Positions 3,454 through 19,158 of a stretch of 64,000 nucleotides of DNA are shown piece by piece. The translations under genes and the position numbers were made by a program. The DNA is from Thermoplasmatota archaeon (lineage in GTDB: Archaea > Thermoplasmatota > Penumbrarchaeia > Penumbrarchaeales > Penumbrarchaeaceae). Positions within the stretch are counted from its first letter, which is position 1, and each line of letters begins with the position of its first letter. A model generated the notes under the pieces. That model made no database searches. It was not told the DNA's origin and was given only the letters and a program-made list of their open reading frames with translations. The DNA lies in contig JARVGK010000007.1 in NCBI GenBank assembly GCA_029762535.1, positions 1-64,000 of the forward strand. The letters run 5' to 3'.

Positions 3454-4317
3454 ATGCCCTCGATCCGAAAGATCCAAAAGGTGATGAAGAGCAGGCCCAC
3501 TCTCGAAGGTGCAGGGGTTCACCTTCGAAGGGCCTTCGGGTTCCACGATGAAAATGCGTTCGATCCGTTCCTTCTTCTGGACGATTTCCGCTCTGACGAT
3601 CCCCGGAAATACCTTCCGGGGTTTCCCTGGCACCCCCACCGCGGGATCGAGACGATAACCTACATGCTATACGGATCCGCAGAGCACGGGGACAGCCTCG
3701 GCAACAAAGGGGTCATCGGTCCCGGCGACGTCCAGTGGATGACCGCGGGATCGGGCATCATCCATCAGGAGATGCCCAAGGGAGATCCCGAAGGAAGGAT
3801 GGGGGGATTCCAGCTCTGGGCGAACCTGCCAGCAAGGATGAAGATGATGGATCCCCGATACAGGGATATCGGTTCCGATTCGATCCCGGAGGTCGAACTC
3901 TACGGAACGAAGATCAAGGTGGTCGCAGGCAGGGTCGGGGATGTCAGGGGTCCGGTCACGGATATAGTGATAGACCCGGAATACCTGGACGTTCGGATGC
4001 CCCCCAATTCCACCTTCGATCACCCTAATCCGCCCGGACATACCGTCCTGGCATACTTATACAAGGGCAAAGCCCTTTTCGAAGAGGACATAACGGTCCC
4101 GTCGGAGAACGTGATCCTCTTCGGCGACGGAGCTTCCGTCCGTTTCAGGACAGGGGATCTCCCTGCCAGTTTCCTTCTGATATCGGGCAAACCCCTCAAA
4201 GAGCCAGTTGCCTGGGGAGGGCCCATCGTCATGAACACACAAGCCGAGCTGGAACAGGCCTTCACAGAACTGCGGTCGGGGAAGTTCATAAGATCGGGCA
4301 ATGACCCGAACCTCTAA
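3454..4317 (+). CDS. Pirin family protein
   Basis: DPFLLLD, GFPWHPHRGIETITY, QWMTAGSGIIHQE, FQLWANLP, GGPIVMNT. Start moved from 3367 to ATG 3454. Confidence 0.95.
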   Translation: MPSIRKIQKVMKSRPTLEGAGVHLRRAFGFHDENAFDPFLLLDDFRSDDPRKYLPGFPWHPHRGIETITYMLYGSAEHGDSLGNKGVIGPGDVQWMTAGSGIIHQEMPKGDPEGRMGGFQLWANLPARMKMMDPRYRDIGSDSIPEVELYGTKIKVVAGRVGDVRGPVTDIVIDPEYLDVRMPPNSTFDHPNPPGHTVLAYLYKGKALFEEDITVPSENVILFGDGASVRFRTGDLPASFLLISGKPLKEPVAWGGPIVMNTQAELEQAFTELRSGKFIRSGNDPNL

Positions 4318-7300
4318 GGGATCACGCCCTGGAGGCTGAACCCGCTCCAACCGACGTTTCCCGCAAGGTCCACTGCATACACCGTCAGAACGAAGGTCGT
4401 CGGAACGGCGAACATGGGCATCTGTATGTTGCCTGTCCACTCATACTGGTCTATGGCCGCGAGGTCCACCCGACCCACCTCCTCTCCCTCGAAGTACTCG
4501 AGGACCGCGTACACCGAGGATATCTCACCTGCTATCTCGCTGAGCATCACCGTGATGTGCACGTCATGGCCCGAGATCACCTCCATGTTCGGATATGGGG
4601 TTATGACCATTATATGGGGGATGATCGTATCGATCGCCACCATGCTCCAAACCGTTCGGCTGTTACCCAGGTCGTCGCGCACGATAGCGCGAACGTTCGC
4701 CCAGCCCTCCGCCAATCCCTGCTCCGCAGGATCGATCTCCAGGACGAACTCGTAGGCGGTCCCGTTGGGTATCCGGTCACTAACCGCATACTGGAACTTG
4801 GTGGCGTTCCCATCGGTGATCTCGAACTCCACCCTGACCGCGTTGGGGTCCGAAGTGGATGCCACTATCCTGAACGGTCCGTTGTAGTAGGCCGGATCCC
4901 TATCCGGATCGATCCTGAGAGAAAGGTCCGGGGCGGTCCTGTCCACCTCGATCCACAGCTCATGAACATCCCCGGTCCGTCCGTAGGCGTCCCTTATGTT
5001 AACGTAGAAGACAATATCGCCCTGGGGCATCTCGGATATGTTCAAGGGAACCTCGAACCTGCCAGGGTCCAGGGTCGGGACGACAGCACCGGTGTAAGGA
5101 TGGGGCGCTCCCGGATCTATGCGGAATTGGATGTCGAAGAAGGAATCCACTATCCATTCGCCTTCCGATCCGCTAAGGTTCGCCCTCAGGGACATATTGG
5201 TATCGAACCTGTGCCTTGACCCGTTCAACGGGGCGATGATCTCCAGATCAGGTAGTGCCGGGTCCCATAGAATATCGTCCCTGAACCAGGGCCAATCGCC
5301 GAATAGCGGGTAGTTGACCCTCCACTCTAAATAGGTGTGTTCCTCCGTGGCGAGATCCCCTATCGGGAAAGCCTCGCCGAAGGACCAGTTGTAGTGGACC
5401 GACCCGTAGGGCCCTCCAAGCCTGAATCCGGCATGGCCGTAACCGGTGTTCAGCCCTTCGGGAACATCGTAGCCGGGAATGGTGACGTTCATACCCGGTA
5501 TGACCACTAAGAAGGAACCCGTATCGTTCTCGAACCTGAGCGGGGCCGGGTACCACATTATCTCAGGCCTATCAAAGCCCCTCCAGATGGTGAAATTGCT
5601 GTAAGGGGTCCAGGGCCCGAAGACGTCGTCCTTCTCCCATCTGAGCCTCCACCACCATGTACCGTTCCCGATATCCTCCGGGAACGGCCACTCCGTTACG
5701 TTCCATCCAAGCTCCTGATCCCAGAACGGATGGTCGAATGTGGAGGTATTGTCTATCTGCAACCTCAGCCTCATCTCCCTGGTGAAGTTCTCGAGGACCC
5801 ACCAGAAATAATCTGGATCCGGATCCCACATTATATGATCGTCGTTAATAGGCCTCGTCGGAGTGATGACCGGATTTGGCCTGATCGTCATGTTGAAGAA
5901 CTCATAAGGATAGTTCACGGTCCCGTCGAGCAGGGTCTTGATCACTATGACCTCCTTCATGCCGGGCGGTATCACAAAGGTGCCGTTCTGCCCCTTGCCG
6001 AGAGTATGGTTCTCATAGGATCGGCTCCCGTCCGGTTTCACCCCGATGATGGTGATCCCCCATCTGGAATTGGGCATCCTGGGATCGAACTCAATGATGC
6101 CGCCCGAACCGTTCATGACGAATCTGTTCACCCTCGACCCATAGCGTTCCACCCACTCGCTCGCGCTCGATGGCGCGCCGGTGAATCCGACCTCTCTATC
6201 GGGTTTGACCGGCCCGAAATCCGTCCCTGTCCGATACTGGGGGAATCGATTCTCCACCCTGTAAAGCATGAACTCTCGTATGAGGTCCTCCAGTTTCTGA
6301 CCCGTCGCCTCTTCAATGGCCCCTACCCCTATCACGTTGGTCCCGGAACCGCCATAGCTGGTATTGTCGTAGATCTTCTTGATCACGTCCTTGCCGAACT
6401 TGTCGAAGAGGAACTTCCAGAACAGGAAGGCTATCTCGTAGTATTCCCATATGTTCGCATAGTAGGTCCTGTTGTTCGCACCGTGCCAGTCGGTGAATAT
6501 GTTGATATGGCTTTTGGAGGTGTAATTGATTATGTTCAGGTTCCCTGAACTCTGCAGCTCCTTTTCGACCTCTACCCAGGTCATATTGTAGTTCTTCATG
6601 GTGGAATACCTTCCCACGAACTCGGCCATTCCCTCCTCGAGGAACCTGTGGGCGAGCGGACCGATGTGCCATGCCCCGTTCTGACGCTGCTTCCACTGGA
6701 AGCTGTGGGTGACCTCGTGCTCCACCAGCTTCTTGTTCGTTACCTTGTTCGTGCCAAGGTCCACCTGTATGGACCCGTCGGGTTGGCACACCCCTGAATA
6801 TGAACCGTTCCCGCTGGCCGTGACCCGTATTATAGGCCTCCCGGAGGGATCCGTCCCCGAGGATGCTGGATCCCCGAAACCCATCTCCTTGAGGAGCTTG
6901 TAGGTGAAGTCGATGTATTCGGTGAGGTTGTCCATCATGTTCTGGCCCACGGGATGGGCGGCAGGGACCTGGAAGGAGACGTTCACGTCCCTAGGGGGGG
7001 TCAATGCTTCGAAGATATCATACTCTTCATCATACCCGGCCGTGAAAGGCTCCGTCCTCCCGTTGACTATGTGGATCACCCAGTCGCCGGGGAGAGGTAC
7101 CTCGACGATGTTGTTCTCCCCCGGGGAGGGAGGACCCGCCGTCCAGTAGGATACGGGTCCGACATTGGGACCTTGTAGCGACAGAGAGCTGCCGATGGGG
7201 GCAAGGGTAAGATAATCTCCTTTCGTCCATCCGAGCCTCGGTGTGTCCCCGTTCCCCTCCCCCCATGCTATGAGATCGACGATGTTATCATCAGCGTCGA

Positions 7301-19090: not shown

Positions 19091-19144
19091 GCTGTGCCCT
19101 CCAATGGAACCTTGATTCCCAGTTGAGTGCATCACCTTACTGCG

Positions 19145-19158
19145 ATTTATAAGGTTCT
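19145..19158 (-). promoter_or_regulatory. Putative BRE/TATA promoter of the giant Ig-vWA-AAA operon
   Basis: Minus strand AGAACCTTATAAAT about 55-70 bp upstream of the start. Confidence 0.5.

Follow-up and report, generated by a model that had tools for sequence, protein, structure and literature searches.

Organization of the Locus

This analysis concerns a 64,000-nucleotide stretch of DNA from an uncultured Thermoplasmatota archaeon (contig JARVGK010000007.1, assembly GCA_029762535.1; hereafter the window), in which four genes form a real and conserved archaeal cell-surface module around a membrane-set AAA motor. They encode, in order, a giant Ig-repeat protein, a vWA protein, the motor itself and a small protein with three transmembrane (TM) helices (the 3-TM protein), and are followed by the gene of a metalloprotease-like protein. 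An earlier sequence-only reading had listed these five co-oriented open reading frames (ORFs) with their domains and spacings, and our ORF and domain analysis recovered all of them on the minus strand. A TATA-like element had also been placed at about 19150 ahead of the first four genes, where we find TTATAAAT (19145..19152, minus strand), a putative promoter. Its position at 19152-19145 makes ATG 19090, with GGAGG upstream, the likely start of the Ig giant. Given a vWA start at ATG 12829, the gap between the Ig giant and vWA genes is 57 bp; the vWA and motor genes are 3 bp apart, the motor and 3-TM genes overlap by 13 bp, and about 100 bp separate the 3-TM and protease genes. A weak hairpin and T-run lie 3' of the 3-TM gene, with a hairpin scan giving no excess over shuffled sequences, and the protease gene appears to have a TATA-like box of its own (TTATATA, 5' of the gene). 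A sigma-70 promoter scan of the window was set aside as unsuited to an archaeal host.

Conservation of the Module in Thermoplasmatota

Homologs were sought with the membrane region of the motor alone. Of 401 Thermoplasmatota genomes, 37 carry the motor; they represent nine families, and another two matches (E ~8e-4) were marginal. The order Ig giant, vWA, motor, 3-TM occurs in 24 distinct loci, one of which ends before the 3-TM gene, and it is far beyond chance. The Ig giant is the first gene in 24 loci and is absent from its place beside the motor in L081, L082 and family f26, while locus L021, which contains masked bases, has neither upstream gene. Recurrence of the neighbors was the check that the sequence-only reading proposed, and it holds across Thermoplasmatota for the vWA, Ig and 3-TM genes and fails for the protease. 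With these recurrent partners, and with PF00004 and TIGR01243 as the best matches of the ATPase, the idea of a conserved envelope module, driven by ATP and not of the MoxR type, is well founded. No description of the module or motor was found in the open-access literature. In family f3, an ORF of 80 residues is encoded close to the operon on the other strand (L069:2529-2771, L070:6464-6706), and by eye its product resembles ubiquitin.

The Membrane AAA Motor

The motor gene (8369-11464, minus strand) encodes a protein with an AAA match at E 2e-41 and CDC48 (TIGR01243) as its best NCBIfam match. Its N-terminal signal peptide is followed by an ectodomain of two Ig-like repeats and a third beta domain. 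An anchor helix and a basic cytoplasmic linker then lead to ten membrane helices and, last, one AAA module, in keeping with the earlier description of a classic-clade, membrane-embedded AAA protein. In the predicted topology, basic residues are placed on every second loop and sequons are confined to the predicted outside parts, with none in the AAA part. A full-length structural model built from 12 sequences was of low quality in both its membrane and its AAA regions, and a domain model built from 98 sequences was used in its place.

The two Ig-like ectodomain repeats (10709..11374, minus strand) were modeled with a predicted local distance difference test score of ~80, and the third beta domain and anchor helix come next. 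Strong ectodomain matches are confined to motor-bearing genomes. The ectodomain is doubled in family f26 and is encoded as separate single-pass genes in several lineages (L031, L074, L078, L081-L084), which suggests that the fusion in the window motor joins two former subunits. These separate proteins (L074:11560-15692, L078:10889-14823, L084:3-626) share a conserved C-terminal K/R-R-I/V-T-L/V tail that may serve in docking.

The ten-helix membrane domain (9335..10237, minus strand) comprises four helices, whose PFYP and YQ loops are near-invariant, followed by six helices that appear to resemble the energy-coupling factor (ECF) S-component/receptor fold. A Foldseek search and a second look at its hits gave no clear fold. 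Atlas neighbors include 7TM-HD and MreD-like proteins at TM-scores <0.5, and searches of the Atlas by feature yielded nothing usable. A sequence match to EmrE (E 0.005) was set aside as compositional.

The single Cdc48-related AAA module (8453..9265, minus strand) has intact Walker A/B motifs, a KWYG pore loop, the pore loop 2 Tyr and arginine fingers. Judged on sequence, this module is the first ring of a two-ring ancestor. Across the family the first ring keeps Walker A/B, a WYG pore loop and both arginine fingers, usually with the pore loop 2 Tyr, and the second ring is without an aromatic pore loop; in Thermoplasmatota the latter is degenerate, split off (L025, L026) or, as in the window motor, lost. 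The window motor has no HbYX tail and ends in WED, its homologs end in GTRA, GERK and similar, and the CDC48 of the same genome ends in YYG. The motor (8369-8395) and the Ig giant (12887-12920) share an acidic W-E/W-D ending that is kept in most family homologs.

Surface Partners and Neighboring Genes

The Ig giant (12887..19168, minus strand) is a single-pass surface glycoprotein with Big_7/Big_13 repeats, an N-terminal hydrophobic signal and a C-terminal TM helix at residues 2020-2038; 28 sequons lie in its outside part and none in its tail. It is found in most, not all, loci. We regard it as an accessory or client subunit, and likely as one client of the motor. Its homologs in L023, L027, L029 and L030 carry, by eye, a helix-hairpin-helix-like repeat (IKGIG motif) in the cytoplasmic tail.

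The vWA protein (11468..12847, minus strand; VWA E 9e-14) has a head, a stalk and a tail. An N-terminal signal precedes a beta-sandwich with the vWA domain inserted into it, in which the metal-ion-dependent adhesion site (MIDAS, DxSxS..T..D) is intact, and a polyproline stalk then leads to a short hydrophobic segment, with a basic tail closing the protein. The signal and seven sequons agree with the earlier claim that this protein is exported; the way it ends speaks against its being simply exported. Homologs have 22-34 prolines in the last 130 residues, most with an intact MIDAS. The conserved C-terminal segment (11471..11620, minus strand), defined by homolog alignment and present in a single copy in the genome, contains a PVEY-like motif, a short Gly/Ala-rich hydrophobic helix, a basic run and a terminal V-x-V-G-A. 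In L081, L082, L211, L220 and L252 the head is swapped for an unrelated domain without a Pfam match, with the stalk and C-terminal segment retained. Both the vWA head and the Ig giant can be replaced or are optional.

The 3-TM protein (8073..8381, minus strand) is a single-copy protein encoded directly downstream of the motor; it is found only in families with the motor, and in one family its gene follows the split-off second ring. Family f26 has a different small 3-TM protein after the motor (L074:7300-7900, L075:3483-3923), which ends in VGA like the tail of the window stalk protein.

The LTD-HEXXH metalloprotease-like protein (4314..7973, minus strand) has HEVTH at residue 425, then EEGMAEF. 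It has no signal peptide and is a type II membrane-anchored protein, with an acidic cytoplasmic N-terminus and one TM helix at residues 83-101. No other motor locus examined contains its gene, and eight close homologs in eight genomes of the family lie on other contigs among other neighbors. The protease, which the sequence-only reading had offered as a candidate member, is a chance neighbor outside the module. The "split FtsH" arrangement proposed alongside it is left unsupported, the protease being unlinked in relatives and the motor having no M41 match.

Immediately upstream of the operon, within 19196-20988, lies a RadB gene, as is also the case in L002 and L005, and this is preceded by a 350-residue ORF without a family match. 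Elsewhere in the window, a 481-residue ORF (1717-3162) begins with a hydrophobic stretch resembling a signal, contains repeat-like sequence and matches no Pfam family.

The Motor in Other Phyla and Its Ancestry

The membrane domain is present in most Micrarchaeota genomes (210 of 251), nearly always as a single match, in addition to canonical CDC48, and all full-length Micrarchaeota copies examined have two AAA rings. Searches of this phylum yielded essentially no ectodomain or 3-TM partners. In one Micrarchaeota subset an S-layer gene follows the motor in 25 of 32 loci; since just 1 of 20 distant loci shows this adjacency, it was rejected as a feature of the whole phylum. Further archaeal phyla and bacteria were reached by a motif scan alone, so that the matches listed are a lower bound; among them are Thermoproteota, including Vulcanisaeta sp. 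JCM 14467, in whose draft genome the motor is split, and it is intact in three close single-contig genomes.

The motor neighborhoods in Micrarchaeota and Thermoproteota are unrelated to the window operon, which argues that the partners are a Thermoplasmatota addition and not a requirement of the motor. The motor predates the operon. Homologs in unrelated neighborhoods, which the sequence-only reading held to tell against a module, do occur in these two phyla, and its refutation holds by half; in Thermoplasmatota the vWA, Ig and 3-TM neighbors recur. Several Thermoproteota proteins carry the membrane domain fused to other outputs (L302:1423-3132, L304:643-2391, L305:661-2412, L307, L309). These are a KaiC ATPase (E 3e-30 to the profile built here) adjoining a second KaiC gene, a DUF835-like domain (weak Pfam match) and, more weakly, a long helical domain, and the fusions are possibly a new archaeal sensor family.

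A quick tree with few references sets both motor rings apart from five canonical CDC48 proteins (Shimodaira-Hasegawa-like approximate likelihood ratio test 99) and groups them with a long-branch clade of other Micrarchaeota AAA proteins. The first rings of Thermoplasmatota and of Micrarchaeota are each monophyletic in this tree, and on account of these separate clades a recent transfer of the motor from within the sampled Micrarchaeota was rejected. In four Micrarchaeota genomes (G401, G424, G427, G483), no PAN-like sequence was present among the strong AAA matches examined, and a distinct long-branch AAA clade was found instead (L148, L155, L157, L159, L162).

Comparison With Known Systems

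The motor most likely works like Msp1, or like Cdc48 in endoplasmic-reticulum-associated degradation (ERAD), yet it does not belong to the Cdc48, FtsH, MoxR-vWA, MBA or ECF systems. The closest solved AAA module is that of Cdc48/VAT and p97 (PDB 5vc7, 5g4f), with which it shares a two-ring ancestor, Walker A/B, the second region of homology, an aromatic pore loop and a tail helix. However, the soluble double-psi-barrel N domain of Cdc48 is replaced by the ectodomain and ten-helix membrane domain, with no CDC48_N match, and the motor has one ring in the window (two in many homologs) and no HbYX.

Msp1/ATAD1, FtsH/Yme1 and Sulfolobus MBA have one or two anchor helices, MBA having a single TM anchor and no folded N domain. 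They likewise hold a classic AAA ring below the membrane, and the pulling direction is likely the same; the motor's motifs are compatible with Msp1-like ATP-dependent extraction of membrane proteins. In contrast to these proteins, the motor has eleven helices, an ectodomain, dedicated surface partners and no protease domain. MBA is listed among the archaeal AAA groups (PMC3493965), and the motor's folded ten-helix domain sets it apart from MBA as generally described.

Compared with ECF S components and S-fold receptors (5TMR-LYT, MreD), the motor has four extra N-terminal helices, a 60-residue outer loop and a fused AAA unfoldase. It lacks a conserved AxxxA in helix 1 (residues 505-518), and no EcfT/EcfA or other ECF module genes recur beside it. 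The paper describing S-fold receptors does not mention AAA or CDC48 (PMC11109136). MoxR-vWA systems (RavA-ViaA, Bat operons) resemble the module in pairing an AAA+ gene with an adjacent vWA gene and in having membrane and exported partners. Yet the ATPase here is of the classic clade (AAA_5 only at E 1e-3, below the cut-off), no DUF58 was recognised, and the vWA domain is replaceable and predicted on the opposite side of the membrane. A MoxR-type partnership was accordingly rejected, as the sequence-only reading had argued.

Possible Functions of the Module

Classic AAA unfoldases are hexamers that take in substrate at the N-terminal face and pull away from it. The reading that we tentatively favor, at a little short of an even chance, is a membrane-integrated unfoldase that pulls membrane-spanning surface proteins inward. 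By analogy with the family, the AAA modules would form a hexamer below a ring of membrane domains, and a polypeptide would enter from the membrane face and be drawn to the cytoplasm, as in Msp1, FtsH and Cdc48. The S-component-like helices and outer PFYP/YQ loops may recognise a membrane-spanning client or signal, with the ectodomain, 3-TM and stalk proteins as accessory subunits that choose clients on the outside of the cell. The conserved tail of the stalk protein would be gripped by the motor or the membrane ring, and the head of this protein would be a swappable binding module. The net job would be the extraction, turnover or remodeling of single-pass surface glycoproteins, with the Ig giant as one likely client.

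The predicted topology agrees with the positive-inside rule and with where the sequons lie. In the membrane-proximal ring, neither catalytic nor pore-loop residues vary, and the decay or loss of a distal ring without an aromatic loop suggests that the work is done next to the membrane. Motors without partners in Micrarchaeota and Vulcanisaeta suit a general envelope task, and in two phyla the neighbors of the motor are surface proteins, namely those of window-type loci and the S-layer protein of one Micrarchaeota subset. The genome itself encodes ~182 large single-pass surface proteins. Several points weigh on the other side. Substrate, binding and expression of the motor are all putative, there is neither a coupled protease nor an HbYX tail for proteasome docking, S-layer adjacency is rare in distant Micrarchaeota, and the related genomes in our counts are not independent. 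The KaiC and DUF835-like fusions, moreover, suggest sensing rather than a channel or dislocase.

The C-termini of the surface proteins were also considered. A Glu-Glu end is found in 50 of the ~182 large single-pass proteins compared with 26 of the 1467 remaining ORFs (odds ratio 21, p 3e-32; genome G000, e.g., C4, C6, C12, C69), and in 38 of 84 surface proteins with tails of <=30 residues. Mixed codons at these ends argue for a signal at the protein level. As a substrate tag for the motor, a link was not seen in small samples: the counts were 0/12 for motor-negative genomes and only 5/42 for motor-positive other families.

The fusions would fit a receptor-gated ATPase, in which the S-component-like domain, assisted by the ectodomain and the head of the stalk protein, binds an outside ligand and turns the ATPase on or off toward a cytoplasmic or membrane target, so that the system signals and is not a dislocase. 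We consider this rather unlikely, even though the S-component fold is also used by sensor kinases and MreD (PMC11109136), the structural neighbors include 7TM-HD and MreD-like proteins, and KaiC and DUF835-type outputs are archaeal signaling domains (PMC5847659). It is somewhat less probable still that the motor grips the stalk tail and passes TonB-like force to the vWA head and Ig giant for attachment, retraction or coat rearrangement. The proline-rich stalk, the mostly intact MIDAS, the fixed gene order and a tail conserved while the head is swapped would suit such a retractable adhesin. However, partner-free motors are left without an account, in some loci of family f26 no stalk protein is seen next to the motor, and the rod would itself be liable to extraction by a processive unfoldase.

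Feeding offers another explanation, with the vWA and Ig parts catching outside proteins and the motor threading them through the membrane. Inward pulling agrees with this, as does a same-family relative from a protein-amended enrichment of Ca. Penumbrarchaeia, which were enriched to 90% on protein and are rich in unknown genes (PMC12220078). Yet the class already encodes oligopeptide transporters and, in some families, extracellular peptidases (PMC12220078), the protease is unlinked, the motor was not found in most other Thermoplasmatota families searched, and any pore is hypothetical; import for feeding is improbable. These three explanations are not mutually exclusive. Outward assembly or secretion of the Ig/vWA adhesin, as put forward in the sequence-only reading, draws on the tight, co-oriented packing of the motor with genes for exported proteins. 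It is the least credible, since the Ig and vWA proteins carry ordinary N-terminal signals and the clade's usual pulling direction runs away from the N-terminal face.

Significance

The favored inward-pulling unfoldase bears on a poorly known process, namely how archaea remove, remodel or retract surface glycoproteins. The motor is near-universal in Micrarchaeota, occurs in cultured Vulcanisaeta, and is elaborated to a multi-subunit module in uncultured Thermoplasmatota. The S-component-like match provides a first structural handle on the membrane domain, and Vulcanisaeta a cultured source. A doubtful but more far-reaching idea is that of a one-chain archaeal counterpart of ERAD, in which an S-component-fold recognition domain is set in a Cdc48-related motor. 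In Thermoplasmatota this motor would have gained a surface receptor arm, namely a swappable head on a polyproline rod held by its tail in the motor, and captured or damaged proteins would be moved through the membrane to the cytoplasm. If true, this would be a new class of ATP-driven transmembrane machine.
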